Shown here in pieces: positions 1 through 15,708 of a DNA stretch of 64,000 nt. The notes below the pieces were generated by a model. The model did not search any database, had not been told where the DNA came from, and worked only from the letters and a program-made list of their open reading frames with translations. The stretch's first letter is position 1. Every line of letters begins with the position of its first letter. The stretch lies in the NCBI GenBank assembly GCA_022787405.1, contig JALFXR010000046.1:2365-66364 (forward strand). Reading direction: 5' to 3'. Made by a program: the position numbers and the translations under genes. The stretch comes from Bacillota bacterium (GTDB lineage Bacteria > Bacillota > Clostridia > Peptostreptococcales > Anaerovoracaceae).

Positions 1-1476
1 CGCCTCCACCTTTATTCCCGTTATGTCCAGTGTATCTCCGATATCGTATACTTTTTTCTTGGGTGGGGTGATAACTTCTATGTAAGTGATTTTGCTGCCC
101 AGTGCCATCATGTGTGCCGAGTCATTCTTAAAGTAAATGGTACCGTATTCATCACAGATCGGGCTTGCTATTGCGTACTGTGCCTGTCCGCCCTGGGGTG
201 TAAACAGCACCGGCGCACAGTCATAGGTCTTGCCGTCTGATGCCGTTTCTTTGATTCCATCCAGCAGAGACATCTGCCCCGGTCTGTCCTTTATGTACCG
301 CAGTTTGCCCGGCGTCATATTTTCAAAGAAATACACATAGACATATCCTTCCGACTTTTCGTATGCGGTGGTAATCAGCCCGCTTGTCTGAGGGTATCCC
401 ATACAGCTTGCGGTGTAGGCGATAGAAAAGCTTTCAAGATCGATTACGGCGATTCTATGTCCGTTATACTTATCAAACTGCCCGCTTCCCGATACGCCAA
501 CATAGGCTCTCCCGTTATATACCGCGGGAGTTGAGGTGCTCATGCCGCCTAGTTTTAGCTCTTTCAGGTCACTGATTTTCCCTGATTCGGATACCTTCAC
601 CGAGTAAAAGCTGCCGCCTTTGCTGGTAAAATAATATCTGCCTGTGACCTCATCGTATGATACATTGGAGCGAATGTCCGCATTCAGTCCTTCCACTGAA
701 TCAAGAAGCTTTCCCGTCTTCGGTTTAAAACATAAAAGCTTTGAGCTCTGACTTATATATCCGTCATTTCCATCATCTGTCCCTACAAGGACAAAATCAT
801 CATTTACGAAAGCTCCTGCCCAGTAGTATCCGCCCTTGCTTGTATAGGTCCATTTGGCTTTCTTGGCTTCTGTCGCAGATGCAGGTTTTTCGTCCTTTAC
901 CGATACACATACGAAGTTGGCATTCCTCGTTTCGGAGTTCCAGAACCCAGTATACACATATCCGTCATGATATATAATCGGACAGTTTGGCTGTCCCTTA
1001 AGCTCGTCCTGATACACCCACAGAGATTCAAGCGTCTTGGCATCGAAGGCCTGAATTCTCCCGTTGGCAAGACCCACGAAAATCATTCCGTCCCCATAGG
1101 TAGGCGGAATAATGCTGAAATTGGAGCGCTCCACCATGCTGCCGCTGGCCACCAGTTCTCCGCTTACCGCATCCATTTTATTGATAGTCTTTCCCTGATT
1201 GTAATAGAGGTATCCATCCACCAGAATCGGTGAACCGATTGCTCCTTCACCGTACCCATCTCCGGATTTAGTGGCCCAGTAAAGGGCTGCTTCCCCTGCT
1301 TCTGTCGGCACCGGATCAGAAACCACGGCATTGTTGTTTTCGTTTCCGCGAAAATCCGTCCAGTCACGCGTTATGACTTTTGACGGGTCGCTGGCTCCGA
1401 AGGCAGCAGCGGAAGATGTCACTACAAGGACTGCACAAAGTGCTGCTGTCAGTATCTTTTTACCTGTTCTTTTCAT
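1..1476 (-). CDS. Secreted PQQ-like/BamB-like beta-propeller repeat protein (3' end runs off the window)
   Basis: Absent from the ORF track because no stop is reached before the window edge. An ATG at ~1476 follows an AGGAGGG RBS and reads MKRTGKKILTAALCAVLVVTSSAAAFGA (signal peptide). I checked the frame by hand at 1-120, 721-780 and 1441-1476 and found no stops. Propeller-blade-like motifs repeat (GSPILVDGYLYYNQGKTINKMDAVSGELV; GDGMIFVGLANGRIQAFDAKTLESLWVY). The start overlaps the stop of the upstream gene by ~16 nt. Confidence 0.6.
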   Translation of the reverse strand, partial: MKRTGKKILTAALCAVLVVTSSAAAFGASDPSKVITRDWTDFRGNENNNAVVSDPVPTEAGEAALYWATKSGDGYGEGAIGSPILVDGYLYYNQGKTINKMDAVSGELVASGSMVERSNFSIIPPTYGDGMIFVGLANGRIQAFDAKTLESLWVYQDELKGQPNCPIIYHDGYVYTGFWNSETRNANFVCVSVKDEKPASATEAKKAKWTYTSKGGYYWAGAFVNDDFVLVGTDDGNDGYISQSSKLLCFKPKTGKLLDSVEGLNADIRSNVSYDEVTGRYYFTSKGGSFYSVKVSESGKISDLKELKLGGMSTSTPAVYNGRAYVGVSGSGQFDKYNGHRIAVIDLESFSIAYTASCMGYPQTSGLITTAYEKSEGYVYVYFFENMTPGKLRYIKDRPGQMSLLDGIKETASDGKTYDCAPVLFTPQGGQAQYAIASPICDEYGTIYFKNDSAHMMALGSKITYIEVITPPKKKVYDIGDTLDITGIKVEA

Positions 1477-3382
1477 ATTCTTTCCTTTTCCCTCCTGTTT
1501 TTTTCAGTTTCTTCGCCATCATGGCAAAGCGGTGCATTTCCTCTTTTTCTGTATTTCCTGCGGAAGCCTCACCGTACCGGATGCTATCGTAAAGCTTCGC
1601 CGCCTTTCTGTATTCCTTTCTGAATTCTTCGCCCCATAGCATACCGATTTCTTCTTCGTAGTGAGAAAGAGGCCTGTTTCTTGCGGGCAGCCCTTTCTTT
1701 TTAAGGCTTTGCAGTGCCTCTTCCATAGAAAAGATAACCGCATCTTCCGGCTTAAGGCGCAGATACTTTCTCCTCCGCAAAGCTTTCCGCAATATCGCCG
1801 TGATTGCAGCGATAATCAGAGCCAGGCACAGAATGTACCAAAGCAGGTTTAAGCCTTCTTCCTGTGTGCTCATTTCATTGCTGCCGGCCGGTTTTTGCTC
1901 CTGCCCGGTGTTCTTTTCCGGTTCCTGCATCTCGCTTTCGGTATCCTTACCTGCGTTTATCAGCACATCGTCATTTTTCATCATGCAGCGAAGCGCAGGG
2001 TCAGATTCAAAGGGAAGCCAGCCGATGCCGTCTTCGTAATATTCGCACCAGGCATGGTAATCCTCTCCTGTAAGCTTTACAGTGCTATTTTCGAAGTCTG
2101 CAGCTTCTTCTGCTGCTTCTTCCGTAATCAGATAACCTTCCGCATATCTTGCGGGAACCCCGAGGCTTCTGAAGAGAAGTACCGCCGCAGCAGCCTCCCC
2201 TGCGCTCTTTGCATCAGGGCTGTCTTTTTTGTTCCCGGCATAGGCTGAAAATTCATCCGGAAGGCTGCTAAAGCAATGGGAATCTTCCTGAAGAACGGTC
2301 AGAATCAGGGACTTGGCTGCATCTGTTTTTCCGATGCCCGCCGCTTTTGTCTCTGCTTCTGCTTTATCAAGGTCTGTATACTCATCCAGTATATACATCA
2401 CTTCCTGCCTGTTGTCATCGCTTATGGCGAGGTAGTTTTTTTCTGCAAAGAGCCGGTAGTTATATTCTGCTTCTGCCGCTTCCCCTTCCGGCAGAGCATC
2501 CAAGATGTCACGCCGCCTGTGAACAAGGTATGTACCGGCACTGATGGTATATGTGTCTTCTCCCCATGCTCCCCCAGCGAGGAAGGTTCTGTCGCCTGTT
2601 TCCGCCTTTCTCTCCGCTCCGATGCTTATGGTTTCATAGGGTGCGTACAGATACTTTCTTGATGCCCCTGTGTTTTTTATGCGCAGAAGATTTTCTGTGG
2701 TCTTCAGATTCGCTGCAGCAGAGGAAAGGGCGGTCTGGGCGTAAAAGCCCCTTTCATGAAGCCTTGCGAAAAGTCCCATGGCATCCGTGCGGGTCGTTCC
2801 GCTAAGCTCCGTCCACACGCCGCCCTCATAGCTTTCTCCAACAAATCCCCGCAGGTAATATGGTGATGGCTCCGACATGGATACTTCAAGCTGCACCTGT
2901 TCATCGCCGTCAAACCTTCCGTATCGCATTTGGGAAATCAGATCCCCGGCCCTGCTGTTTACAAAAAGAATGTCATCCTCGCTTACGGCAGCGTAAAGAG
3001 CTGTGCAGCCTGCCGCCACACACACAGCAAGGGTAATCATCTTACACAGTTCACGCTTCAGACCGCATCTTCCGATGGAAAGATGCGCGAAAAGAAGTGT
3101 CAGGAGGATCATCGCCCCGGCCGCTGCAAGCCATAGCCAGTACTCCGAAAGAAAACTTCCTTTCCCTGCCGACGGCGGCAGAATGTCAGCGGAATAAATG
3201 CAGTTTATTCTCCCTGTGACTATACCGTACACAGTCTCTGAGATAGTTCCGGCTGTATCTGCGTTATAGCCGGACATCGTTGAGGTATCCCAAAGCACAG
3301 CAAACACGCCTGCGAAAGCAAGCAGCGCCAGGACAAGGCTCTTAATATATTTCTTTAATTTCTGTGCTTTTTGCTCCTTCAT
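1460..3382 (-). CDS. Transglutaminase-like multi-pass membrane protein (last member of a MoxR/DUF58/TGase trio)
   Basis: 640-aa ORF with several hydrophobic segments. Transglutaminase-core-like block: LFRSLGVPARYAEGY ... DYHAWCEYYEDGIGWLPFESDP. Overlaps the DUF58 gene upstream. Confidence 0.75.
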   Translation of the reverse strand: MKEQKAQKLKKYIKSLVLALLAFAGVFAVLWDTSTMSGYNADTAGTISETVYGIVTGRINCIYSADILPPSAGKGSFLSEYWLWLAAAGAMILLTLLFAHLSIGRCGLKRELCKMITLAVCVAAGCTALYAAVSEDDILFVNSRAGDLISQMRYGRFDGDEQVQLEVSMSEPSPYYLRGFVGESYEGGVWTELSGTTRTDAMGLFARLHERGFYAQTALSSAAANLKTTENLLRIKNTGASRKYLYAPYETISIGAERKAETGDRTFLAGGAWGEDTYTISAGTYLVHRRRDILDALPEGEAAEAEYNYRLFAEKNYLAISDDNRQEVMYILDEYTDLDKAEAETKAAGIGKTDAAKSLILTVLQEDSHCFSSLPDEFSAYAGNKKDSPDAKSAGEAAAAVLLFRSLGVPARYAEGYLITEEAAEEAADFENSTVKLTGEDYHAWCEYYEDGIGWLPFESDPALRCMMKNDDVLINAGKDTESEMQEPEKNTGQEQKPAGSNEMSTQEEGLNLLWYILCLALIIAAITAILRKALRRRKYLRLKPEDAVIFSMEEALQSLKKKGLPARNRPLSHYEEEIGMLWGEEFRKEYRKAAKLYDSIRYGEASAGNTEKEEMHRFAMMAKKLKKTGGKRKEYEKNR

Positions 3383-4349
3383 AATCTACAGTTATTACAC
3401 GGGAAAACTCCCATTCGTTCCTTTCATCTTCATAAATTGCCGCAGTCGAGATTCCTTTATACAAGGGCGACGATAATATATCTGCCATCTCCCATGCAAG
3501 GCTCTGGGCATCTGATATTTCCGCAATCTTAAGCCTGCTTCCGGTTTCGTTCACGAAGCCGATGTGATGGACGATTCCCCTTTGGATAAGGCTTTGGGAA
3601 AGGGAAAGAAAGTTTGATGCGGCCTGCTGTATCTTTTCTGTCGTATCTGCGCCCTCCAGCAGAATCAGGACTGCGTTTTTTACAGGAAGGCTTCCCTGCC
3701 TTATCATCAGGCTGTCCGTTTTCTGGGAAAGCTTCCAGTGAACAAAGGCGGTTCTGTCTCCCGGCACATATTGGCGCACTTCAAAAACCTCGCTCTGGTC
3801 AAAGCCCGGTTTTATCTCATCATATACATTTCCGTCAAGGTCCAGCATATACCCTCCCAGGGACTGCGTATCCAGAAAAAAGGTCTCCGGTTTTTTCAAG
3901 AATGCCGCTCTTGCCTTCACGTCTTTCACAGAGAAGCGAAAGGTTCCCGTCATGTCGCAGATCCGGACGGCTTCACTTTCAAATATGTATTTTCCCGCGC
4001 TGCCGTATGATGGCTCCATAAGGGCATCTCCCCCTGCTCCAAGGACTTTCCATTGAAGCGTTTCTTCGCCTGTAAGAAGGTTTTTTACCCTTCCTTTTAC
4101 AGCGGCCAGCGGCGTAAGGAAAGCCGGACTCTCGCATTTTACCGTAAGCACAAAGCCATTTTCTGCCGTTTCTGCCTTAAGCGATGTTTTTCCTGCCATC
4201 CGCCGTGCCGATACTGTACTCAGCAGGAGAAACAAAAGAAGTCCTGCACATATCCCAAGCGCCGCCCGGCTTCCAAGATAAATCCCTGTTCCCGCAAGCA
4301 GGCCCGCCAACGACCAGAACAAAAGGCAGCGTTCTCTGATTATGTTCAT
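3342..4349 (-). CDS. DUF58 domain protein (vWA-like, MoxR partner)
   Basis: 335-aa ORF with an N-terminal TM pair and the characteristic DUF58 motif EVRQYVPGDRTAFVHWKLSQKTDSLMIRQ. Abuts the moxR stop with no gap. Confidence 0.8.
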   Translation of the reverse strand: MNIIRERCLLFWSLAGLLAGTGIYLGSRAALGICAGLLLFLLLSTVSARRMAGKTSLKAETAENGFVLTVKCESPAFLTPLAAVKGRVKNLLTGEETLQWKVLGAGGDALMEPSYGSAGKYIFESEAVRICDMTGTFRFSVKDVKARAAFLKKPETFFLDTQSLGGYMLDLDGNVYDEIKPGFDQSEVFEVRQYVPGDRTAFVHWKLSQKTDSLMIRQGSLPVKNAVLILLEGADTTEKIQQAASNFLSLSQSLIQRGIVHHIGFVNETGSRLKIAEISDAQSLAWEMADILSSPLYKGISTAAIYEDERNEWEFSRVITVDYEGAKSTEIKEIY

Positions 4350-5282
4350 CTACAGTGCCCCCGGTATCTTTTCGCTGTCCAGTATCTCTGAAAGAACTCT
4401 TCTTTCATCCTTTTCCTCTGCCCTTGCCTTACTGCTCAGCCGAACGCGGTGGCAGCAGACATGAAGAAATACGGTTCGTATATCGGCAGGTGTAACAAAG
4501 TCTCTTCCTTCCATATATGCGGCTGCTCTTGCCATCCTGCTGAGAGCCAGCGTGCCTCTCGGACTGATTCCCAGTGAAATCATTTCGTCCTCCCTTGTCC
4601 TTCGACAGAGTCCTGTCATGTATGCCATCACTTCTTCGGATATATGTACGCTGCCTGCCTCTTCCTGCATTTTCAGTATATCCTCAATGCCGCAGACTTT
4701 TTCTGCCTTTTCAAGAGGGTTTGTTTTCTGTCTGTCCCTCACCATGTCAAGCTCGCTTTCAAAGTCAGGGTATCCCATGGATATTTTGATAAGAAAGCGG
4801 TCAAGCTGGGCATGAGGAAGTCTCTGGGTTCCTGCACCGCCCTCGGGATTCTGTGTTGCGATTACCATAAAAGGTCTAGGCAGAGGATGGCTCTTACCGT
4901 CTACGGTGGCCTGCTTTTCTTCCATAACCTCAAGGAGTGCAGACTGGGTCTTGCTTGAGGTGCGGTTTATCTCGTCTGCAAGAAAGATATTGCAAAAAGC
5001 CGCTCCTTTCTCATATCGGAACCGACCGCTGTTTTTGTCATACATGGTAAAGCCGGTAATGTCCGATGGAACCACATCGGGTGTAAACTGTACACGCTTG
5101 TAGTCCAGTCCAAGGACCTTGCTGAAGGCAAGGGCCAGTGTGGTCTTACCCACGCCGGGCACATCCTCGATCAGCACATGGCCTTCCGACAGGAGCGCCA
5201 TGAGAACATTTCTTATGACTTCATCCTTTCCTTTTACTACAGCGCCTATTTCATCAAGAATTCTGTTTATCATATCTACCAT
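4350..5282 (-). CDS. moxR: MoxR-family AAA+ ATPase
   Basis: 310-aa ORF. Walker A is DVPGVGKTTLA, Walker B is FLADEINR, and the sensor region VIATQNPEGGAGTQRLPHAQLDRF is typical of MoxR. Confidence 0.9.
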   Translation of the reverse strand: MVDMINRILDEIGAVVKGKDEVIRNVLMALLSEGHVLIEDVPGVGKTTLALAFSKVLGLDYKRVQFTPDVVPSDITGFTMYDKNSGRFRYEKGAAFCNIFLADEINRTSSKTQSALLEVMEEKQATVDGKSHPLPRPFMVIATQNPEGGAGTQRLPHAQLDRFLIKISMGYPDFESELDMVRDRQKTNPLEKAEKVCGIEDILKMQEEAGSVHISEEVMAYMTGLCRRTREDEMISLGISPRGTLALSRMARAAAYMEGRDFVTPADIRTVFLHVCCHRVRLSSKARAEEKDERRVLSEILDSEKIPGAL

Positions 5283-6697
5283 TCCTTTCCGTAATTCTTC
5301 AGTTTTCCGTAATTCATGCCCATGGCCTTGTATCCCCCGATATCCTTGCCGTAGGCAAGGGTAAAGCGCAGCCTTACCACATCACCGTCCTGCACATAGG
5401 CTTTGCTCAGCCCGTAGGAGGAATATATGCCGTTGATGGAATACATCCAGCCGGAGCCCTGAGAAAAATCAAATTCTCCCAGCTCGTCTATGCCGGCGTA
5501 GCTTTCCCTGTCGAAGATGAGACCGTCTTCTTCGATTTTTTCTGCCAGATCTTCCGGTATGCTGAAGCCGCTGAGCATACCTTTCTTTTCCACTGCCGCC
5601 AGGTAAAAGCCGTTCTCGATGGTTCCGGCATGGCGACAGGAAAATCCGTTGCTTTTCAGGAACCTGTCCACCACGGATGCAAGACTCTCTCCGTCTTCTG
5701 CCTTCATGGTCTGCGGCCTGATGAGATAAGGAATTCCCACAGTGCCGGCTTCAAGGCTTATGATTATTTCTCCTGCTCCGGTTCGATACCACAGGGTCCA
5801 TACCCTGGTGACGGTGTACTGATAGACATCTCTTGCAGTCACCTGAATCTTGTTTTCTCCTTCCTTCAGATACACGCTGTAGGTCTGGCGGTCCATTTCG
5901 CCGATATAGTCTGCGGCCTTGCCGTTGCAGGTGACCTCCATGTTGCTGTAGGAAAGAGTTTGCCCCCGATAGTCTGTAAGCCATACATCAAAATTAAGTT
6001 CCTTCTGGTTATATGTGGCTCCGTCCTTCAGGTTTGTCTCGATGACGGGCATCTTTTCGGCAGGGGTTGTGCCTTCCGGTCTCTCGTACTGCACCTTTTT
6101 TATGTAGCTTCGGCGGTTTCCGCTTCCATCGATATAGCTTATCTGAAGGATGGTGGTTCCTTTGGTGCTCAAACTGATTTCAAAGCTTCCGCCGGATGCG
6201 GTAACCCGTGTTTCTTCGCCCGGAGCTGTGATGACCTTTATCTCCTGTATCTTTTCGTCAGGGCCAAGGCCCATTTCCTCAGAAAGCGCATCTTCAGAAA
6301 AAGATTCCTTCGCAAAGGCATCCTCCTCCAGATCATCCTTTAAAATCTCCTGCGGATTTCCTGGCGGTTTTTCGGGCAGATTGTCTGCCGTGCTGTTTTC
6401 TTTTCCTGAAGATGGGTTCTCGGCGGGTTCACTGTCTGCTTTTTCTTCCTTCTCCCGGCTATCTTCTGACTCATCCTCCCCTTTCGCAGCATAATTTTGA
6501 GCAGTGCCGGTTTCAGGCACTTTGTCTATCCATGGATATTCGGGCACAGTTTCTTCCATTTTTTTCACGCCAAAAACAGCACCTGTAATTAGTACAAGCG
6601 CCAGCAGCAGCGAGATATATTTCTTTATGGTTTTCTGTAATCCGGACATTTTTTCCTGCTCTTTCTGGCGTTTTTGGAGTGCTCTCCTGACAGTCAA
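5276..6697 (-). CDS. Membrane-anchored extracellular protein with C-terminal DUF4430 (transcobalamin-like) domain
   Basis: 473-aa ORF with an N-terminal TM segment (ISLLLALVLITGAVFGV) and an acidic Glu/Ser-rich linker. The C-terminal block GSGWMYSINGIYSSYGLSKAYVQDGDVVRLRFTLAYGKDIGG matches the DUF4430 signature. Confidence 0.7.
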   Translation of the reverse strand: MTVRRALQKRQKEQEKMSGLQKTIKKYISLLLALVLITGAVFGVKKMEETVPEYPWIDKVPETGTAQNYAAKGEDESEDSREKEEKADSEPAENPSSGKENSTADNLPEKPPGNPQEILKDDLEEDAFAKESFSEDALSEEMGLGPDEKIQEIKVITAPGEETRVTASGGSFEISLSTKGTTILQISYIDGSGNRRSYIKKVQYERPEGTTPAEKMPVIETNLKDGATYNQKELNFDVWLTDYRGQTLSYSNMEVTCNGKAADYIGEMDRQTYSVYLKEGENKIQVTARDVYQYTVTRVWTLWYRTGAGEIIISLEAGTVGIPYLIRPQTMKAEDGESLASVVDRFLKSNGFSCRHAGTIENGFYLAAVEKKGMLSGFSIPEDLAEKIEEDGLIFDRESYAGIDELGEFDFSQGSGWMYSINGIYSSYGLSKAYVQDGDVVRLRFTLAYGKDIGGYKAMGMNYGKLKNYGKEW

Positions 6698-6750
6698 AAT
6701 GGCCGAAGGGGCAGAAACTGCCCCGACGACCTGTTCTCATTGGTTTATTG

Positions 6751-9700
6751 TTATTTCGTCCACGTTCTCACGGCGTATTTACACTGTATAAGCAGAGTCT
6801 GTGCTACAAGGTTTCCATCCTTGTCGTAAATCTGGATACGAGCCTTGTAATAGTACTTGGTTCCCTTCTTGCCTGCAGTATTGATAAAGGACTTTGTTGT
6901 CTTAGTTATCCTTGCCTGATACTTTGAGGCTTTCTTGGTTGAACGATAGTACTTATACTTCACAGTATATCCCATGCTCTTTATTTCTTTTATGGCTGCT
7001 GCCGTGTCATCATCCACGGTCAGAGTAACCTTGATGTTCTTCTTGGAAGTCTTTGATGAGCGTGCTTTCAGGCTCATGTCTGAAACGAGCTCCTTGATTC
7101 TTTCGATGTTTGCTTCTTCATCGTTTACTTCCAGTCCCAGTGCTTCGCCGTCCACCAGTGCAAATGAGCTGAAGTGTTCTGTCTCAAATACGTAGTATGC
7201 AGTATTGCCGATAGTCTTTCTGCTGCCCGGCATCTGATTGAACTTATCTGCACTTTCAATATGCACTGCGGCAACCTTCTTATCGAGAAGCTTTGACGGT
7301 ATTTCAAGAGTTACAGTCACCTTGCCTGCAAACTTTGTGATGGTCTGCGCACCCGATTTCACGGTCAGATCAACTCTTGCAGCAGTATCTCCAAGAAGCT
7401 TCTTTTCGCTGTCGGTTGTATTCTTTTTCTCGATAATGATGGTCAGTTCGCTTCCTCTTGCCTGTGTGAGGGCGTCCTTGAGGGACGCGCTGTCCAGCTT
7501 GACGGTGCCTGCTTCCGTGGATACAGTAAGTGCCACATCCTGGCTCTTTGCAATATCTTTTAAGGTGCTGACATCCACATTCACTGTAACGGAGTTTGCC
7601 TGCTGGCCCTTGACATCCTTTGATACCTGAATGATGATATCATCGGATTTTGCTTCCAGAGCCTGCTTTTTGATTTCCTCAAGGGTATCCTTATCCACGG
7701 TTACGGAAGCGGCTCCTTCGCTGATGACCGGCTCAACTACAGCGGTAGTATCCTTCTTATCGGTGGTCACATTGCTTTCAGGCATCTGCTCTGAGCCTGC
7801 GATAGCGGTCATCTTATATTTTTCGGCAAGCTGATTGTATATCTCTGTATCTGCCACAGTGATGTATTTTTTCTGCTCATCATTCAGCTTGTTATATGCA
7901 TTATAGGCTGCTCTTGCAGCGCTTTCAGAAGAGGTTGACTTTAACGCTGCAAATTTATCCTTTGCATCGTCGATATCGGAGTAGAACTGAATCTGGTTTT
8001 CAGCTGCGGCAAGCTTTTCCACAAGTTTGCTGTCAAGTTTGGCCCGATCCGTACTGCTGAGGAGATTGTACACTTTTCTTACACTTGCCACCTCTTCCTT
8101 ATATTTCTTATATGTGGTGTATGTGATGGCATCTGCCGAAACCATTGTTTCAAGGGCATCTTTGACATAATCCAATTCGGTTTCATAAACCTTTATGGTA
8201 TATTTGGTTCCGGTATATGCTCTTGCTTCAGCTCCCTGATTGTTCATGGACGGCCACGAATATTCGCCGCATCCCACATACAGTGTGTCTCCCGCTTTTA
8301 CAGGAACAATACTTGTTCTTCTGTACAGAGCACTGTCACTGTTATATTTATTCAGGTATGTTCTTACCTGATAGTTCTTATTGGAAGCAGCAGGCGATAC
8401 CATAAGGTTTGCAGAACTGCTTCCCAGAATCAGTCCATAGTTTAAGGTGCTGCTGTCAAAAGACGGCATAAGTTTGCCTTTACTGATGGAAAGTGATTTA
8501 AGGCTGGTGTCTGAATTACCCCATGTTCCTCCCAGATCTTCTCCGAGATTTTGTGAGAACATGATATGGATTTCATCACCATCTTCCAGTTCACCGTTCT
8601 TATAGCTGAACTCGTTAAAGCCGTAGTTTGTGAACCAGTCGTTTAAGGTTCCCATCCAGCCTGAGCCGGATTCTCCGGAAAACTCTCCAAGGCGTTCTTC
8701 CGAATCATTCAGAACGAAGTCGCTTCCGTCTGCATTAACATTTCTCGGTACTTTGATGGATGCGATATAGCTTATGCTGTAATCATCCCAGCTTGAGGCC
8801 ACACCCTGACTTCCTGTAGACCAGTTACAGCCTTTCAGCTGCAGAGCTTTTAGTACAGCAGTCATCATGGTGTCGTTTTCGCAAAGGTCATAATTGCCGT
8901 CTATGAGAGTACCATACCATGCCGGCGCTCCATTGGAACCAGCCGTCTTGAAGGTCTGATTTTCAACAATGATGTGGACCTTTCCTACGACCTTGCCGTA
9001 GTCAGGAAGTGCCACACCTGAAGCCCCGCCGGTTTCCTGTTCATTCTTCTCTTCCTGTGCTTTTGTCTTAACAGCCGCCATAGCAGCGAGGGCATTTCTT
9101 CTGGCTTCGGAGATAGCCTCCACAGTAGCCGCAAGTTCAACTGCACTCAGTCCATCGACATGAGCACTGGCAAGTACCGCCCAGTTTTCATTGCTGTAGT
9201 CTTCCTGTTTATATTTGCTGAACGCTGAATCAACAGCATCCTTTGCTGATTGCTTCGCTTCCTGAAGTTCCTGCGCCACCTGTTCGCGAGTGGCTTCTTC
9301 GTATTCAGTCTTCGACATTGGAGACAACTGAATCTTCATACTTTCAGCTTCTATATTCGGCATTGTGAAATCGATGGAAATCCAAATCTCACTATACTCG
9401 TTATATCCGGTTTTTTCTGCAAGCTCCCAGTTTTCTCCGCCATCAAGAGAGTATTTTACCCAATACTGTCCTTCGTTTTGTGTCACAAGACGCCGCAGCG
9501 TTATCTCGTTTCCTGCATATGCAGTGATAGATCTCAGCTTTGCTATATCCCCACTGTTGCCAGAAGAAACTCCATTGGTTTTCACAGTATCAAAGATTCC
9601 TATGTTTTTTTCCGTTACTTTATTGAACCAAACCCATCCGGCGACATACTTTCCTGTTGCACTGCTAACCACCGCGCTATTATGTGTCCCTTGTACAAGA

Positions 9701-12612
9701 GTACCTTCTTCCACGCTGATTGTTTTTGTCGGCGGTATCTTAATGCTTGCTACCTCGAAAGCAGCATACATCTCGTTTTTCGCAATCTCAACCGATGAGA
9801 ACAGTTTTGTTTTCTCATATTCATTCAGATACCCATAGCCTCTTTGGAAAGTTTCTATCAGCTCCTTATGTGCATAGGTCACTTCCGTGGTTTCATCCGG
9901 CAGATTCTCTAAATATGACCTGATGTTTGAAACGCGAAGCTCATGATTCAGTGCCGTTGCCGACGCTTTTTTCAGTGCGGCATAATCTGTATCAAAGCTG
10001 TTCATCAGCTCTGCATAGGTGAGCCCTTCCTTTTTCTGATTTGTTACGAGAGTATTGTATTTTTCTACGAACCCAGCATAGTTGCTGTCCGTAAAATCAT
10101 AATCATGGTATTGTTCGTAGAAGGCCTTCGCTTCTGCCAGATTGCTCTTTCGGCTTTCTTCAATCAGTGCTGTTTCATCCTCTGCCGCAGTAACGTATAC
10201 TGATGCATATCCTGCAGCACGCATACCGTGATAATCACCTTTTTCAATTACCTCATTATAGCTTTCGTGATAATATGTGTCTTCGTTGGTATCGTAAAGA
10301 GCGATGATATACCAACCCGGTTCTCTGAAAATATATTCTGTTCTGCCGTCTGCATCCGTTACGGAATTAGTCTTCTTCATGATATCGGCAATCTCGGTTT
10401 TATTTTCAGACGGTTCGCTTACAAACAGTGTAAGACCCTCCGCAGACATGACTTCATCCTGATTGGTGAAATATGTGCCTTTTACTGAGCCCGCAATGGT
10501 TGTTTTCTCTCCTACCACAGCTTCTACCGGACTTTTCGTTATGGAAATGGCTCCTATGTAATCTCCCAGAATATTCAGGGTTTTTACTGAAGCATAAGCC
10601 ACAGTTGTGCCGCCGTTATCTGCAGCATATTCATATCTGCCGATTCCATACAGGCACTTTACAACGCGCACGTCTTCACCATTGTGAAGCTGGATGTTAT
10701 TCATGTCGTTTAGCGCATATATCCCTCGGAATTCGTCATTGATGTATACCATAAACCACGAATTGTTCGCATCCTGAACAGCCACCTGGCTATATCCGGT
10801 TGCAGGAGTTATCCATATGCCGTTTGTCTGGAACTGAAGCCCAGCTTTTGTAACCAGGCTGCTTATAGTAGTGCTTCCTGCTTCCAGACCGAACTCTTTC
10901 TTCATATGTATGCCGGTGCCTGTAATCGTTGCTTTTTCAGATAAACTGTAGGCATTATTGATGTACTCGAAAGAAACCGTGATATTTTGGTTGCTAACAA
11001 GCCCATTTACTGCTGCCTTAAATTTTTTTAACGCAGTATCAAAATAGAATACGGTATTGAAATCTTCTTTGCTCCCGCCGATTTTGTTGCCTGGGCTTGT
11101 TTTAATCGTATACTCGCACTTTTCCTTGAACGCATTATATTCAGCCACATAGCTGTCCCACGAATCCGCTGTATATGTACCATTCTGATTATTTCCTAAC
11201 GCTTCCGGACTATATTCTTCGATAAAGATTCTTGCTTCTTCTAAATACGGGAGATAGTGGTTATTGTAATGGTCCTCATAGGTGGATTTTTTCACCATAG
11301 CGGACGCTGCAGCCGAGTCTGTTTTATCAGAAAAAATCCCATCTTTATAAACGGCAACTGCGATTGCCTTTGATAAAGCGTCACACTTTTCCTGCGCAGA
11401 TTTATCAGTTTCAGATACTTCATTTTTTTCAGTAGGTTCACCGTTTTCATACAGGGAATTCAAATAGTCTTGTCCTTCTTTTAATGCTTTCGCATACGGA
11501 GCCCATGTAACTGCTGTTGTCGTATTTTCCGTTACTATATTTTCACCGGAATAGGAAACATCAATTTTACCGATTTTATTGTCGTTAGTCATCCATCTAT
11601 ACCTTGCGTTTAGAACCTCATACAGCTCCGTCGCATTGACCTGCGTGGTCGGGATGAGGTCGGCGATGGCGGCTTCAAGCAATGCAGCCGCAGCATCAAC
11701 TTGATTCTGCTTAACGCCTGCTGCTAATGCACGCGTTCCGCCCTCTCCCGCAGGATAGATGGTATTCACCCTACCCATTGCAGCTTTATACAGTGCCCAG
11801 AAGCTATCTATTCTCCACTCCTGTTTGGTCCTTGAATTATAGGTGTAGAACAACTTCACTGCATTTCGGTCCGCCTTGATGGTCGCGTCGTTCCGCAACC
11901 TGTCGACAAGGTCTGTAATCGTGGTCTTGCCGTTATAGCGGTCAACCGTGTGGTAATATGCAGTGTCCGTTTCAAGCGAAGGTGCATTTTTGAGCACTGC
12001 GTTCAATTTATCAGTGTTAATTATGACAGGTGTAGCTTCAATCAAAAGTGCATAACGCAAATCATTGTTATTTTCATCTGTTCTAATAAAGGCATAATAA
12101 TAAGTTGCATTTTCAGCGGTGACAAATTCTTGAGAACGATACCCTTTTTCCGTTAAGTCGCTTGTTGTGACAGAATATTTTTGAAAATTAGTATCATCAT
12201 ATTTGAAGGCTCCACCAGTTGTTGTTACTTGTACGGCTCCTTTTCCACCAGCAAGTAAGTGATTATGATACAGTGTAATATTACTTCCAGTATCACTAAG
12301 GGCCCGAAACGTTTTACCAGGTATGGAAATAAAATATGTTTTGAGAACCTGAGCATTTGTACCGGTTGTGTCATTGCTACTTGTTTGACAGTTGATAATA
12401 AGATTTTCTGGCGTTGTGATCTCTTTGATACTGTAGCCGTCTGTGACTGTTATTCCTGATATGCCCAGCTTTATCGTGCAATCATACGAATCTGCCGCCC
12501 AGGCATCTTCCAGTCCCCACTGACCGATGCCAAGCCCTGTGAACACCATCATAAATGTCAGCGTCAGCGCCAGTATCTTCTTTATGGAACTGTTTTTCTT
12601 TACTTTTTCCAT
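6751..12612 (-). CDS. Giant secreted surface protein (1953 aa) with DUF4430 and cadherin-like beta-sandwich domains
   Basis: Signal peptide MEKVKKNSSIKKILALTLTFMMVFTGLGIG...AWA. Internal DUF4430-like block GSGWMGTLNDWFTNYGFNEFSYKNGELEDGDEIHIMFSQNLGEDLGG. It is followed by SLKSLSISKGKLMPSFDSSTLNYGLIL...MVSPAA (cadherin-like beta-sandwich pattern). The C-terminal end has YYYKARI Fn3-like repeats. Confidence 0.7.
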   Translation of the reverse strand: MEKVKKNSSIKKILALTLTFMMVFTGLGIGQWGLEDAWAADSYDCTIKLGISGITVTDGYSIKEITTPENLIINCQTSSNDTTGTNAQVLKTYFISIPGKTFRALSDTGSNITLYHNHLLAGGKGAVQVTTTGGAFKYDDTNFQKYSVTTSDLTEKGYRSQEFVTAENATYYYAFIRTDENNNDLRYALLIEATPVIINTDKLNAVLKNAPSLETDTAYYHTVDRYNGKTTITDLVDRLRNDATIKADRNAVKLFYTYNSRTKQEWRIDSFWALYKAAMGRVNTIYPAGEGGTRALAAGVKQNQVDAAAALLEAAIADLIPTTQVNATELYEVLNARYRWMTNDNKIGKIDVSYSGENIVTENTTTAVTWAPYAKALKEGQDYLNSLYENGEPTEKNEVSETDKSAQEKCDALSKAIAVAVYKDGIFSDKTDSAAASAMVKKSTYEDHYNNHYLPYLEEARIFIEEYSPEALGNNQNGTYTADSWDSYVAEYNAFKEKCEYTIKTSPGNKIGGSKEDFNTVFYFDTALKKFKAAVNGLVSNQNITVSFEYINNAYSLSEKATITGTGIHMKKEFGLEAGSTTISSLVTKAGLQFQTNGIWITPATGYSQVAVQDANNSWFMVYINDEFRGIYALNDMNNIQLHNGEDVRVVKCLYGIGRYEYAADNGGTTVAYASVKTLNILGDYIGAISITKSPVEAVVGEKTTIAGSVKGTYFTNQDEVMSAEGLTLFVSEPSENKTEIADIMKKTNSVTDADGRTEYIFREPGWYIIALYDTNEDTYYHESYNEVIEKGDYHGMRAAGYASVYVTAAEDETALIEESRKSNLAEAKAFYEQYHDYDFTDSNYAGFVEKYNTLVTNQKKEGLTYAELMNSFDTDYAALKKASATALNHELRVSNIRSYLENLPDETTEVTYAHKELIETFQRGYGYLNEYEKTKLFSSVEIAKNEMYAAFEVASIKIPPTKTISVEEGTLVQGTHNSAVVSSATGKYVAGWVWFNKVTEKNIGIFDTVKTNGVSSGNSGDIAKLRSITAYAGNEITLRRLVTQNEGQYWVKYSLDGGENWELAEKTGYNEYSEIWISIDFTMPNIEAESMKIQLSPMSKTEYEEATREQVAQELQEAKQSAKDAVDSAFSKYKQEDYSNENWAVLASAHVDGLSAVELAATVEAISEARRNALAAMAAVKTKAQEEKNEQETGGASGVALPDYGKVVGKVHIIVENQTFKTAGSNGAPAWYGTLIDGNYDLCENDTMMTAVLKALQLKGCNWSTGSQGVASSWDDYSISYIASIKVPRNVNADGSDFVLNDSEERLGEFSGESGSGWMGTLNDWFTNYGFNEFSYKNGELEDGDEIHIMFSQNLGEDLGGTWGNSDTSLKSLSISKGKLMPSFDSSTLNYGLILGSSSANLMVSPAASNKNYQVRTYLNKYNSDSALYRRTSIVPVKAGDTLYVGCGEYSWPSMNNQGAEARAYTGTKYTIKVYETELDYVKDALETMVSADAITYTTYKKYKEEVASVRKVYNLLSSTDRAKLDSKLVEKLAAAENQIQFYSDIDDAKDKFAALKSTSSESAARAAYNAYNKLNDEQKKYITVADTEIYNQLAEKYKMTAIAGSEQMPESNVTTDKKDTTAVVEPVISEGAASVTVDKDTLEEIKKQALEAKSDDIIIQVSKDVKGQQANSVTVNVDVSTLKDIAKSQDVALTVSTEAGTVKLDSASLKDALTQARGSELTIIIEKKNTTDSEKKLLGDTAARVDLTVKSGAQTITKFAGKVTVTLEIPSKLLDKKVAAVHIESADKFNQMPGSRKTIGNTAYYVFETEHFSSFALVDGEALGLEVNDEEANIERIKELVSDMSLKARSSKTSKKNIKVTLTVDDDTAAAIKEIKSMGYTVKYKYYRSTKKASKYQARITKTTKSFINTAGKKGTKYYYKARIQIYDKDGNLVAQTLLIQCKYAVRTWTK

Positions 12613-12730
12613 TTCTTTTTTTCCTTTCTTAATATTTCCCTCCGGTCCGGTCAGGCTCCATTGCCTTCCCGTCCTTTGCGATTGATCTATGTAAACACTA
12701 TTTTTCGTGTAGTGAACTTTCTGTCAGAAA

Positions 12731-13123
12731 CTATGTCCCTCCGCTGTTCTGTTCCATTTCTGCCGCTGCTTCTGCAGCTGCCTTTTCTTCTCTCAGCTGT
12801 CTGCGTCTTTCCGCCTGACGGGCCTTTCTTTCCGCCTTCTTCTGCTCTTTGATGAGATGACTTTCTGCCACCGGTCTTGTGCCTGCCTTCTCCAGCATCC
12901 GGTACCACGGTCCGAAGCGTGCTTTTAAGATCACGTCATATACCAGATCGTCTCTCGTTGGTTCTCTGCCGTTTTCCTCGGTAAAGTCTCTCACAAGCTG
13001 CAGAAGCTCCTCGTCGCTCATGGCCTTGTACGGTTCTCTCAGCTCGTTAAGCAGCTTCTGTTTCTCATGTTCGGTCATGGTCTTGCTTTCTGCAATTTCC
13101 TTTTTTGTCATCTGCTTTGTCAT
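12731..13123 (-). CDS. Small protein with a single homing-endonuclease-associated (HNH_repeat-like) module and a Lys/Arg/Glu-rich tail
   Basis: 130-aa ORF. SDEELLQLVRDFTEENGREPTRDDLVYDVILKARFGPWYRMLEKAG resembles the PF18780-type repeat (..G R.Pt..d......y..rFGsW..AL..AG). A GGGAG RBS lies ~10 nt upstream. Confidence 0.45.
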   Translation of the reverse strand: MTKQMTKKEIAESKTMTEHEKQKLLNELREPYKAMSDEELLQLVRDFTEENGREPTRDDLVYDVILKARFGPWYRMLEKAGTRPVAESHLIKEQKKAERKARQAERRRQLREEKAAAEAAAEMEQNSGGT

Positions 13124-13203
13124 ATATGTAACTCCCGCTGACCTCGGGGGCGGCTTTTTCTTCTATGCACCGCCCCTTTAAGGATGAAAAGTTTTCGAGT
13201 AAT

Positions 13204-13231
13204 AAAAAAACGATGATTTTAAAACCATCGC
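13204..13231 (-). terminator. Intrinsic terminator (expression platform of the proximal riboswitch-like leader)
   Basis: Minus strand reads cgatggttttaaaatcatcg followed by TTTTTTT. It lies ~80 nt upstream of the 130-aa CDS start. Confidence 0.5.
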
Positions 13232-13379
13232 TTTTGTGACATATGAAATACAGGCAGACAGCTTACGCCATCTCCCTTTCTTTCGGCTCCCCGACCCTTT
13301 CTTTATCTTGGTTTCAGGGGTTTGTAGGTCTTCTGACTTTTACATTCAGATGCAATCTTTTCAATTGCACCAGCGCACG

Positions 13380-13600
13380 CATTTCGCCTTCTCTCCGGGC
13401 CATGACAGCCCTTCCAATGACCGGCTTTCGCCGTATGCAGATTACCCTGCACAGAAACGGTACTTTGTAATCACAGCTACTAAGGGAGCGTGCATCTTCG
13501 CCAGTATGCACCTGGCTGCCGCTCCCACGTGTCCAGGAATTTCACCTGATTCCCTTGTTCAGCAAGGAACAAGAATGCGTGTCCGAAGCGTAATCGCATC
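13380..13600 (-). promoter_or_regulatory. Cobalamin-riboswitch-like element, proximal copy of a tandem pair (divergent)
   Basis: Minus strand contains ACAAGGGAATCAGGTGAAATTCCTGGAC (conserved 5' core). An inserted hairpin (GGGAGCG...CGCTCCC) follows, then TAGCTGTGA, GGTCATTGGAAGGGC and a B12-box-like GGCCCGGAGAGAAGGC. The match is less canonical than the other two copies. Confidence 0.4.
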
Positions 13601-13653
13601 TTCGGGTCGCGCATTTGCCACAAAAGCCATTTTCCTATTCAATTATTCATCGA

Positions 13654-13684
13654 AACAAAAATAGACTGCCTTCTGCGGCAGTCC
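13654..13684 (-). terminator. Intrinsic terminator between the two tandem riboswitch-like elements
   Basis: Minus strand reads GGACTGCCgcagaaGGCAGTCtATTTTTGTTT (7-8 bp GC-rich stem plus U tract). Confidence 0.6.
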
Positions 13685-13694
13685 ATGCATTCTC

Positions 13695-13925
13695 GTAATA
13701 TCCCGGCATCCCGGTTCTATTATCGCTCGGTGCCCCTCCGCAAATCCCCGCCGCTCTAGCAAAGGATTCTTCTCTTCGGTTACCCTCACACTGAATGTTT
13801 CTTCTGCCTCAGAAGTGAAATCATTCGAGCCACAACTCGTCTCCCGTCTCGTCGCCATCGGCGCATTACGGTTGCTGGCCAGCCGGGGAATCTCACCCCA
13901 CTTCCGTTAGTTATGCTCATTTCGT
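13695..13925 (-). promoter_or_regulatory. Cobalamin riboswitch, distal copy of the tandem pair
   Basis: Minus strand GGAAGTGGGGTGAGATTCCCCGGCTGGCCAGCAACCGTAA aligns almost base for base with the core of the canonical copy at 15.6 kb (GGAAGCAGGTGAGAATCCTGCACGGTCCCGCCACTGTA). A B12-box-like GAGACGGGAGACGAG lies downstream. Confidence 0.6.
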
Positions 13926-13954
13926 TATATATTCTATTTTTTCTCAGTAATTAA

Positions 13955-13983
13955 ATGCTATCACACCGACTTCATAAAGTCAA
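13955..13983 (-). promoter_or_regulatory. Sigma-A-type promoter for the tandem riboswitch leader
   Basis: Minus strand reads TTGACT, 17-nt spacer, TAGCAT, with an extended -10 TG (gTGaTAGCAT). It lies ~25 nt upstream of the riboswitch core. Confidence 0.45.
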
Positions 13984-14171
13984 CATATTTTACCAAATCA
14001 AGAGGGGTTTTTTTGCTTGTACAATTGCACTGCCTGCTGCTGTGTTTTCCGTCATAAATGCCGCCTCCTTTTCTTTCGCTTTTTTATTGTCAGAATGCAA
14101 AACTCCCGCCTCACATGGGAATGCTTTGATATCTCGCCCTTCCCACCGGCAGGAGTTTTCTTTACTCGCAG

Positions 14172-14485: not shown

Positions 14486-15211
14486 CTATCTGCATATATA
14501 AATCGGTGCTGACTTTTCTCTTGCCTCCCTTGCCAGTGCAAGGTCTGCCTTCATCAGCTCGAAGCTTTCTCCCGGCCGCATAAACGGCTCGATGACCTTG
14601 GCAACCTGTGGAAACAGCATCCTCCTGTCTCCAAAAAACTCGATGACAAACAGCTTATGAGGCGCTGTCCTATAGTCGGGTCTGGCAGCCAGAATCCATG
14701 CCCGGGTCACCTCCGGATTTTTCTCAAAGAAGCTTCTGAGAACTTCCACGATTCCGGGCGGATAGCTTTTTAGTGGTGATAATATCTGTGGCGCTGGGTG
14801 GTCTGTGCGCTGCAGCGTCATTCCTTCCATCTCCCTGTCAATCTCCATGAGCTGGGGTCTTCGCAGTACCAGCGCCTTGCCGAATGGATTAAGCACCACC
14901 CCTGAAAATTCCGCAGGAAGGTCTATGATTATGTGTTTTAAGTCATCAAGGGTCATCACACCTATGTTGTCCCATGGCGTATGTTCTCTTGTCAGCTCGT
15001 ATGGTGATGTAAATGCCGGAAGGAGTATTTCGCCTGCAGAGTTATGTAATGCTGCCACGTTCATGGTATCTCCCTGGTATGGCACGAGAAGCTGCGCATC
15101 CTTCAGTTCTTTAAAAAACCGCCTCTTTCCTTGCTCCGTTGGGTTGTCTCTGAATCTTTCCATGGCCTTCACCAGGTCGAAGCCCTCTGCGAAATTATCG
15201 TCTATTCTCAT
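14486..15211 (-). CDS. SseB-family protein (enhanced serine sensitivity protein B-like, N and C domains)
   Basis: 241-aa ORF. FFKELKDAQLLVPY ... LLPAFTSPYEL ... and a C-terminal half typical of SseB_C. RBS CCGGAGGAAC upstream. Confidence 0.6.
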   Translation of the reverse strand: MRIDDNFAEGFDLVKAMERFRDNPTEQGKRRFFKELKDAQLLVPYQGDTMNVAALHNSAGEILLPAFTSPYELTREHTPWDNIGVMTLDDLKHIIIDLPAEFSGVVLNPFGKALVLRRPQLMEIDREMEGMTLQRTDHPAPQILSPLKSYPPGIVEVLRSFFEKNPEVTRAWILAARPDYRTAPHKLFVIEFFGDRRMLFPQVAKVIEPFMRPGESFELMKADLALAREAREKSAPIYICR

Positions 15212-15420: not shown

Positions 15421-15484
15421 AGCCCGTTTTTACTGCAACAAAAATATTCGCAAGTGCTCCCCGACACAAGGAACTGTCAAACAA

Positions 15485-15690
15485 TTTATGCATGTCTCCT
15501 GACTCAGCGATCAACGCTTTACTCACCTTCCCACACCCATCTTCTATCCTTTTAAATCGGTCAGAGGTGCAGTGGCATACTGAGCAAAACTCCTTCAATA
15601 CAGTGGCGGGACCGTGCAGGATTCTCACCTGCTTCCATCTTAGCTCCGGCCTCGGCTCGCTTCATGCCGCCCGGAGAACATAAATGCCTT
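15485..15690 (-). promoter_or_regulatory. Cobalamin (B12) riboswitch, canonical
   Basis: The minus strand carries all hallmark blocks in order: GGAAGCAGGTGAGAATCCTGCACGGTCCCGCCACTGTA, ATGCCACTG, GGGAAGGTG, and the B12 box AGTCAGGAGACATGC. Confidence 0.85.
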
Positions 15691-15708
15691 CATATGAACT
15701 TCGAACTT

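Follow-up and report, generated by a model that had tools for sequence, protein, structure and literature searches.

We analyzed a 64,000-nucleotide stretch of DNA from a Bacillota bacterium (assembly GCA_022787405.1, contig JALFXR010000046.1, positions 2,365 to 66,364 of the forward strand), hereafter called the window. At one end, seven closely spaced genes on the minus strand follow a promoter-like site and two cobalamin aptamers in tandem, each with its own terminator. We conclude, with a probability of about 0.75, that these are the first seven of nine genes in an operon whose products capture corrinoids (vitamin B12 and its analogues) outside the cell. The sequences show which genes are present, their domains and folds, the riboswitch elements, a conserved gene order and a linkage to B12 importers, and from these we infer ligand binding, co-transcription, repression and all functions of a gene trio that encodes a MoxR-type ATPase, a DUF58-like protein and a TgpA-like membrane protein with a transglutaminase (TGase)-like domain. 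A first-pass annotation of the same DNA had proposed a B12-repressed, corrinoid-binding apparatus at the cell surface, with uptake encoded elsewhere. The riboswitches, together with the energy-coupling factor (ECF) and FecCD importers, the adenosyltransferase and the toroid protein found in related loci, support this proposal.

Two tandem cobalamin aptamers precede the operon

Two cobalamin riboswitch-like leaders, each with its own terminator, had been claimed directly upstream of the operon, where a search with the Rfam model RF00174 was suggested. This search does return two matches, both below the gathering score (Table 1). Both aptamers contain the GGAA-P4 hairpin (GGUG..A.UCC) and a 3' B12 box (AGUCAGGAGAC-like). 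Aptamer 2 has the two core motifs as GAAUCAGGUGAAAUUCCUG and AAGUCAGAAGAC, and its fold z-score is -4.3. Both aptamers also pass a two-part core-motif scan, which gave 27 matches in 1.5 Mb and 0 on the reversed sequence, and aptamer 1 can be aligned column by column with a short, 75.6-bit aptamer from Sporosarcina ureae (locus L023). Besides RF00174, we used a covariance model, R1, which was built from a trimmed 140-position core of 17 aptamers from other loci, with the window aptamers left out of the training set. In 2.8 Mb of searched sequence, R1 finds both: aptamer 2 scores 28.7 bits (E = 6e-6), and the region of aptamer 1 scores 18.2 bits (E = 9e-3). Tandem aptamers recur in loci L050, L051 and L058. 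The leaders of L007 and L011 are ~95% identical to that of the window, too close for covariation analysis.

As expected for an expression platform, an intrinsic terminator is located downstream of each aptamer. Because each element leads into a strong terminator hairpin that ends in a T run, and the sub-threshold matches, core motifs and R1 scores agree, we find the claim of two terminator-bearing leaders to be right. Transcription must read through two riboswitch-terminator units, and the operon would thus be expressed only when intracellular corrinoid is low.

Both large surface proteins carry transcobalamin-beta-like modules

The first-pass annotation had assigned the DUF4430 signature (PF14478, gathering threshold 23.8 bits), which corresponds to the beta domain of transcobalamin and is also known as SLBB, to both large extracellular proteins of the operon. 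For the membrane-anchored 473-aa protein this stands, as it passes the Pfam model with 32.7 bits. The protein is probably 457 aa long, since the gene calls of its relatives match an ATG at 6649, and belongs to a family with more than 1370 detectable homologues. An exact-sequence look-up of the 473-aa protein returned no record. Its AlphaFold model has a pLDDT of 79.6; a fold search with this full-length model was swamped by Ig-like matches and did not expose the SLBB domain. Against PDB sequences, sequence and profile comparisons of the family gave either no match or low-complexity artefacts, among them huntingtin and SNF5, which were discarded.

The 1953-aa secreted protein, hereafter the giant, does not pass the DUF4430 model, and the assignment here draws on other lines of evidence. 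At full length it has no Pfam match, and a segment-wise Pfam scan gave no further domains. BLASTP aligns it with the 473-aa protein (E = 2e-8, 33% identity over 76 aa) across the block GSGWMGTLND...DGDEIHIMF, and this DUF4430-like block is the best-conserved part of the giant family, some members of which are annotated with SLH or DUF4430. In an AlphaFold model (pLDDT 82.8), residues 1200-1375 adopt the beta-grasp fold known from the beta domain of transcobalamin. The 16 best PDB matches of this model in Foldseek (probability 0.90-1.00) are all either 3u7z, a Ruminococcus gnavus protein, or beta domains of transcobalamin, haptocorrin and intrinsic factor, after which the list drops to generic ubiquitin-like folds. 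As BLASTP, family conservation and the AlphaFold/Foldseek comparison agree, the giant does contain what its model indicates to be a transcobalamin-beta-like module. A degenerate second block at 10648-10980 (residues 545-655), which reads …NSWFMVYINDEF…LHNGEDVRVV…, resembles the SLBB signature GW…N…DGD and has no hidden Markov model (HMM) support.

The operon continues past the window edge and encodes a split transcobalamin

The first-pass annotation described a seven-gene operon. All seven minus-strand open reading frames exist, but the operon comprises nine genes, two of which lie beyond the window edge. Contigs L011, L012 and L013 are 97.4-97.7% identical to window positions 1-13933 and continue after the beta-propeller gene with two more genes. 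The first encodes a 276-aa membrane-anchored DUF4430 protein (66.3 bits), for which phmmer against PDB sequences gave nothing useful. The second encodes a 439-aa secreted protein with weak SQHop_cyclase/prenyltransferase-type matches (24 bits) and fn3, and judged from these matches it is an alpha/alpha toroid resembling the transcobalamin alpha domain, whose fold class is indeed the alpha/alpha toroid (PMC1796856). A toroid gene is thus encoded together with an SLBB gene in near-identical contigs, outside the window. Since these two genes follow the propeller, the operon would encode a split transcobalamin plus two larger SLBB-bearing proteins.

The propeller, which is cut by the window edge, has 657 aa and a C-terminal fn3 domain in relatives. 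It had been likened to the Bacteroides B12 scavenger BtuG. This likeness does not hold at the level of sequence, at which the two were compared: phmmer against PDB sequences gave quinoprotein dehydrogenases, BamB and fn3 modules, BtuG was absent from the matches, and we consider the protein PQQ/BamB-like instead.

The first gene of the operon encodes an HNH_repeat protein. This domain recurs in two unrelated B12 clusters, L088 (812-1066) and L094 (12406-13251). In L088, the HNH_repeat gene is the first behind a riboswitch and is followed by a cobA/BtuR-type adenosyltransferase gene; in L094, the domain is fused to DUF2284 and located between a TGase-like gene and DUF4430-ECF genes. Given this recurrence, the HNH_repeat protein is probably a genuine, if unexplained, part of such clusters and not the remnant of a homing endonuclease.

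Related clusters are linked to B12 importers

We compared 80 loci from Clostridia and Bacillales, one genome per species, which were anchored on the 473-aa family; gene order was tabulated by BLASTP for features within ~10 kb of the anchor. Of the 80 loci, 68 have a toroid gene, 51 have MoxR and 36 have an ECF transporter, and 42 contain the full MoxR-DUF58-TGase trio. Trio and ECF genes share one same-strand cluster in 15 loci, including those of Peribacillus faecalis, Sporosarcina ureae, Lysinibacillus alkalisoli and Blautia sp. MSJ-19, which together with Kurthia senegalensis are cultured carriers of the cluster. Neither MoxR nor ECF is found in eight loci, mostly ones with little sequence downstream of the anchor gene. 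A cobalamin aptamer is located on the cluster strand in 49 of the 80, and the distance from it to the first gene of the cluster is typically 20-500 nt.

In L004, the one locus tested, the ECF S-component is closest to CbrT of PDB 6FNP (E = 5.8e-8, versus 0.015 for folate S-components), and the ECF ATPase passes TIGR04520. In one locus, L088, the cobA/BtuR-type adenosyltransferase is encoded behind the riboswitch. For a reciprocal test, we chose six genomic contexts anchored on the TGase-like protein, solely for long contigs and a spread of ranks. All six are corrinoid-type clusters; five contain DUF4430, four of these with adjacent ECF genes. In L097 (4759-12394), the trio directly follows a FecCD / ABC ATPase / Peripla_BP_2 importer of the BtuFCD type. 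As FecCD and Peripla_BP_2 replace ECF in this locus, the trio associates with two importer classes.

These associations bear on the identity of the ligand. The apparatus could capture heme or another tetrapyrrole, as proposed for Lactobacillus sakei Lsa1836-1840, where in vitro evidence for a role of the operon in heme uptake has been presented and heme was docked into the modeled alpha/beta groove (bioRxiv 10.1101/864751). The aptamer-fronted majority of homologous clusters, the two aptamers before the window operon, the CbrT-like S-component and the co-encoded corrinoid adenosyltransferase speak against heme, and we saw no heme-related genes in the scanned neighborhoods. The substrate stays a formal rival because of the L. 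sakei relative, but riboswitch control argues for corrinoids, and we regard a heme-capturing apparatus as improbable.

Two further features were seen in some relatives. In L002 (9008-9956), L015 (8246-9194) and L051 (8411-9350), genes for an ExbB/MotA-like channel protein and a DUF2149 protein separate the 473-aa-type gene from the cobalamin riboswitch. A proton-motive-force stator within a B12 capture operon is unexpected in bacteria that have no outer membrane. In some Oscillospiraceae-type clusters, a PQQ/Cadherin-like giant bears a dockerin (L096 12354-16913, L098 12321-16877 and L099 12303-16856), and a cohesin protein is encoded upstream in L096 (1905-2594) and L098 (2072-2764). By analogy, this suggests that the capture proteins of these clusters may be anchored cellulosome-style.

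The TgpA-like protein of the MoxR trio lacks a catalytic cysteine

The ATPase of the trio belongs to MoxR proper (MRP subfamily), having an AAA_3 core with an AAA lid and a DUF58-like gene directly after it, an arrangement conserved in 42 of the 80 loci. For the DUF58-like protein, phmmer against PDB sequences gave nothing useful. Its DUF58 domain is predicted to be cytoplasmic, because positive charges flank both sides of the two-helix hairpin. In the TgpA-like protein, the hydrophobicity profile shows three segments at the N-terminus and a fourth further on, and the large loop between them carries the transglutaminase-like domain. The basic tail that follows the last transmembrane segment, predicted to be cytoplasmic, is conserved in the family.

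The first-pass annotation had called this gene transglutaminase-like. A polytopic membrane protein with a Transglut_core domain is confirmed (41.4 bits, where at least 23 were required), with only profile positions 56-107 of 108 being matched, so that the match starts after the nucleophile position. The domain also aligns with Pseudomonas aeruginosa TgpA (PDB 6g49), and this alignment starts just after the position of the Cys that we take to be the catalytic one in TgpA. TgpA is essential in P. aeruginosa. Among 50 family members, the nucleophile column contains Ser in 35, Asp in 9, Ala in 5, Asn in 1 and Cys in none, whereas the rest of the triad is kept (His in 49 of 50; the acidic residue Glu in 42 and Asp in 7). 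A Cys-His-Asp triad is thus found in none of the 50, and the idea of a cross-linking enzyme does not stand. With a nucleophile that varies in this way, the domain more likely serves in binding or as a scaffold, without catalysis, as far as can be judged from the alignment.

Related trios are found in the bifidobacterial PFNA cluster and in the mycobacterial moxR1 operon, which encodes DUF58 and a vWA membrane protein (PMC8430577, PMC12067865). The PFNA cluster, where the trio (MoxR, DUF58, transglutaminase) adjoins an FN3 surface protein, raises the question of whether the window encodes a generic assembly cluster for a surface adhesin, with B12 leaders that regulate only the first gene or are incidental. 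The giant is adhesin-like and, apart from its DUF4430-like block, dark to Pfam, and the operon adjoins a conjugative element that bears another adhesin. We nevertheless find this very unlikely: toroid, SLBB and ECF-CbrT-like genes co-recur with riboswitches across Bacillales and Clostridia, all six contexts anchored on the TGase-like protein are corrinoid clusters, and there is no strong terminator after the first gene that would confine regulation to it.

The same trio could act on the giant more directly, with the TgpA-like protein anchoring or processing it covalently, as a sortase-independent cross-linker or cysteine protease, and MoxR/DUF58 serving as activator. No membrane segment is apparent at the C-terminus of the giant, and the Transglut_core score and the conserved His and acidic residue would fit an enzyme. 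In the 50 family sequences, however, the nucleophile column, as aligned to TgpA, never holds Cys, which leaves this proposal with only a very small chance.

MoxR and DUF58 might alternatively form a chelatase-like motor of the CobS/CobT or BchI/BchD kind, which inserts metal into, or removes it from, scavenged corrinoid precursors. B12 regulation would suit such a role, and there is weak NCBIfam similarity to BchD/ChlD (56.7 bits) and to a 'putative cobaltochelatase' (41.2 bits). These scores are far below the NCBIfam cut-offs of 499 and 779 bits, no cluster contains a CobN/BchH-like subunit, and the DUF58 protein is membrane-anchored and always paired with a TgpA-like membrane protein; we give a chelatase hardly any credence.

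Layout of the operon and its leader

Pfam backs most of the gene assignments of the first-pass annotation (Table 1). In 5' to 3' gene order, the intergenic spacings are +118, +53, -7, 0, -41 and -17 nt. Genes that overlap or lie no more than about 120 nt apart had been noted before, and the largest gap of 118 nt agrees with this. So does our terminator search with the reported absence of internal terminators: terminator-like matches within genes are weak and located in coding sequence, and both strong ones are in the leader. The homology with relatives L007 and L011 begins just upstream of the promoter. The host, a Gram-positive gut bacterium, is a monoderm member of the Clostridia, with Anaerovoracaceae and Emergencia as nearest named relatives.

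Table 1. Positions of the operon genes and leader elements in the window
Feature	Position	Strand	Evidence and properties
Sigma-70-like promoter, TTGACT-17-TAGCAT, TG upstream of -10 hexamer	13955-13983	minus	sequence match
Cobalamin aptamer 1, short, no P6 extension, class-II-like	13817-13956	minus	RF00174, 26.2 bits, E = 6.6e-4
Intrinsic terminator 1, 10-bp stem then T run	13661-13686	minus	hairpin prediction
Cobalamin aptamer 2, long form, ~130-nt insertion	13308-13589	minus	RF00174, 15.5 bits, E = 0.09-0.8
Intrinsic terminator 2, 13-bp stem then T run	13206-13235	minus	hairpin prediction
HNH_repeat protein, 130 aa, basic tail	12731-13123	minus	PF18780, 44.7 bits
Giant secreted protein, 1953 aa	6751-12612	minus	one N-terminal hydrophobic segment
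Putative transcobalamin-beta-like (SLBB/DUF4430) domain of giant, ~aa 1207-1365	8518-8994	minus	HMM fragment, BLASTP, conservation, AlphaFold/Foldseek
Membrane-anchored 473-aa protein (TTG start)	5276-6697	minus	disordered acidic linker, Ig-like domains, C-terminal DUF4430 (PF14478)
MoxR-type AAA+ ATPase, 310 aa	4350-5282	minus	AAA_3, 184.7 bits; AAA_lid_2, 87.9 bits; no hydrophobic segment
DUF58-like protein, 335 aa	3342-4349	minus	PF01882, 21.0 bits; N-terminal two-helix membrane hairpin
TgpA-like membrane protein, 640 aa	1460-3382	minus	Transglut_core, 41.4 bits; four hydrophobic segments
PQQ/BamB-like beta-propeller, secreted, cut by window edge	1-1476	minus	PQQ_2, 33 bits

Genomic surroundings of the operon

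A canonical cobalamin riboswitch, which the first-pass annotation did not mention, is located at 15472-15698 on the minus strand; with 103.9 bits it is the only cobalamin riboswitch in the window that reaches the Rfam gathering threshold. A short distance upstream of the operon, it drives a separate SseB-like gene (14486-15211, minus strand; PF07179 and PF14581). This pairing recurs beside the homologous operon in L001, with the riboswitch at 11492-11679 and the gene at 11969-12646. We know of no B12-regulated SseB-family protein that has been described.

A complete-looking conjugative element adjoins the operon at 16792-55343, and chromosome-like genes begin at ~55.7 kb. Its genes encode a CHAP-domain protein, a VirB4/TraG-like ATPase, a VirD4-type coupling protein and a MobA/VirD2 relaxase, and further a Toprim protein, a 2388-aa SNF2 protein, a 2626-aa SpaA/TQ-ester adhesin, RadC, ParB and ParA. 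Because of this proximity, the B12 operon may be cargo of the conjugative element. Proximity to the element is also, with a Pfam bpMoxR match of 32.7 bits, what could be said for a mobile MoxR-vWA-beta-propeller conflict or defense system made up of MoxR, the vWA-like DUF58 protein and the propeller, the least credible of the alternatives given an AAA_3 score of 184.7 bits, a PADLOC search that gave one marginal 18.8-bit match, nothing else and no assigned system, and a cluster that is controlled by riboswitches and keeps a fixed gene order with nutrient importers.

In contigs L007 and L011, which share 95-97% identity with the window, the operon promoter is bracketed by 24-nt inverted repeats (L011 946-969/1091-1114, L007 943-966/1087-1110). 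The repeats are 88% complementary and 120 nt apart, and a gene for a 186-aa serine recombinase (L011 328-888) is located directly upstream of them. From this arrangement, the L007/L011 promoter is a candidate invertible, phase-variable promoter. The window (~13990-14055) has lost the two arms of the repeat together with most of the recombinase gene, and with this loss the promoter would be locked in the ON orientation. The adjacent conjugative element and the candidate invertible promoter suggest that the capacity for B12 capture may be mobile and phase-variable in Firmicutes.

Discussion

Several results weigh against an operon for corrinoid capture. Neither leader aptamer reaches the RF00174 (clan CL00101) gathering score of 31.5 bits, with 26.2 and 15.5 bits, respectively, and 31 of the 80 loci have no aptamer, about half of these being cut off upstream. 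The DUF4430 match of the giant, on a sub-fragment, is below the cut-off at 14.1 bits (E = 0.068), its Foldseek E-values are modest (3e-3 to 5e-2, with TM scores of ~0.4-0.6), and the DUF58 match of 21.0 bits falls short of the cut-off of 23.4. The window contains no importer: as stated before us, there is no BtuCDF, ECF or BtuB-type transporter among its scanned open reading frames of at least 150 aa, and thus no locus in it combines a CbrT-like S-component with EcfT and EcfA/A'. The sampling of loci, 80 plus 6, was anchored on one family. Finally, the only experimentally studied relative with toroid, SLBB and ECF proteins, L. sakei Lsa1836-1840, has been linked to heme and not to B12 (bioRxiv 10.1101/864751).

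Our preferred reading, a corrinoid-capture operon, suggests the following mechanism. Transcription would start at the sigma-70-like promoter and, at low corrinoid, read through both terminators. Three SLBB modules would be produced: on the secreted giant, on the membrane-anchored, Ig-rich 473-aa protein and on the 276-aa protein encoded beyond the window. Toroid and SLBB modules together would clamp the corrinoid at the cell surface, like the two domains of transcobalamin, and the giant and the propeller may extend or organize this capture layer. An importer encoded elsewhere in the genome, ECF-CbrT-like or BtuFCD-like in relatives, would then take up the ligand.

Judged from gene neighborhoods, the trio is most likely a dedicated accessory of corrinoid-capture systems, which would couple ATP hydrolysis by cytoplasmic MoxR, via DUF58 and the TgpA-like protein, to an extracytoplasmic step. 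This step could be the assembly of the capture complex, or the release and hand-over of tightly bound corrinoid to the importer. Transcobalamin-type binders hold corrinoids extremely tightly, and release is considered for this reason. In its strongest form, the trio would be an ATP-driven transmembrane machine that forces corrinoid release to the importer, the monoderm counterpart of the TonB-ExbBD energization of BtuB. We put this forward tentatively and consider it unlikely; if true, it would be the first defined biochemical role for the widespread, orphan MoxR-DUF58-TgpA operon family.

The locus and its ~80 relatives provide a recurrent, riboswitch-controlled parts list of split transcobalamin, giant SLBB surface proteins, PQQ-like propellers, importers and the trio. 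Placing a trio sub-family in a nutrient-uptake pathway gives it a concrete phenotype: how well cells grow and take up B12 at picomolar concentrations of the vitamin. The competition of Gram-positive gut bacteria for scarce extracellular B12 is essentially unstudied; recent reviews treat such capture as unexplored, and one of 2026 called Gram-positive extracellular cobamide capture 'entirely uncharacterized' (PMC13616437).

We compared the operon with known systems. Extracellular SLBB proteins of low-GC Gram-positives were predicted to be B12 scavengers by Burroughs, Balaji, Iyer and Aravind in 2007 (PMC1796856). Common to that prediction and our operon are secreted or anchored SLBB modules, paralogous SLBB proteins in one operon, fusions with Ig-like domains or beta-propellers, a separate or fused alpha/alpha toroid and CbiO/CbiQ-type transporters, and both systems are known from sequence. 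The 2007 paper mentions neither a riboswitch nor the MoxR/DUF58/TgpA-like trio, and our literature searches found no paper that links MoxR/DUF58/TgpA-like genes to cobalamin riboswitches or B12 uptake. A dedicated link of corrinoid capture to the trio thus appears to be unreported. Gram-positive B12 scavenging by SLBB proteins is already predicted; the association with the trio is the new part and offers a real lead to what an orphan AAA+ module does.

L. sakei Lsa1836-1840 (ECF-S, ECF-AA', ECF-T, beta-like, alpha-like; bioRxiv 10.1101/864751) likewise combines a split transcobalamin with an ECF importer, and its core is the toroid-SLBB-ecfT-ecfA-ecfS block of 36 of our 80 relatives. It has been assigned to heme, and the five genes listed include no MoxR trio, giant or propeller, whereas the window operon lacks ECF genes and has cobalamin riboswitches in front of it. 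The Bacteroides BtuB-BtuG-BtuH-BtuJ relay (PMC8941943, PMC10404256, PMC13616437) is also a B12-regulated, multi-protein extracellular capture system, propeller included, in which several binders of high affinity pass the vitamin to a transporter. The folds and families differ, however: phmmer against PDB sequences detected no similarity to BtuG or BtuH, and the BtuH paper makes no mention of transcobalamin. The Bacteroides proteins are TonB-energized outer-membrane lipoproteins, whereas our host is a monoderm with a MoxR trio and, in some relatives, an ExbB-like pair.

With the MoxR-DUF58-TgpA operons (P. aeruginosa TgpA, 6g49; PFNA; mycobacterial moxR1), the window operon shares the order of an AAA_3 MoxR, DUF58 and a polytopic protein with an extracytoplasmic transglutaminase core. 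The family described here differs in having no catalytic Cys throughout and in being embedded in riboswitch-controlled corrinoid clusters.

Tandem riboswitch arrangements have reportedly been described by Sudarsan et al. in 2006 and by Welz and Breaker in 2007. The window leader resembles these in having two complete aptamer-plus-terminator units in series; its units differ in cobalamin architecture, one being short and the other long with an insertion.

Mammalian transcobalamin, haptocorrin and intrinsic factor, finally, are alike in their beta-domain fold and alpha-like toroid. In the bacterial operon, the two domains would reside on separate polypeptides, with the predicted beta module present on three proteins and built into very large multidomain surface proteins.

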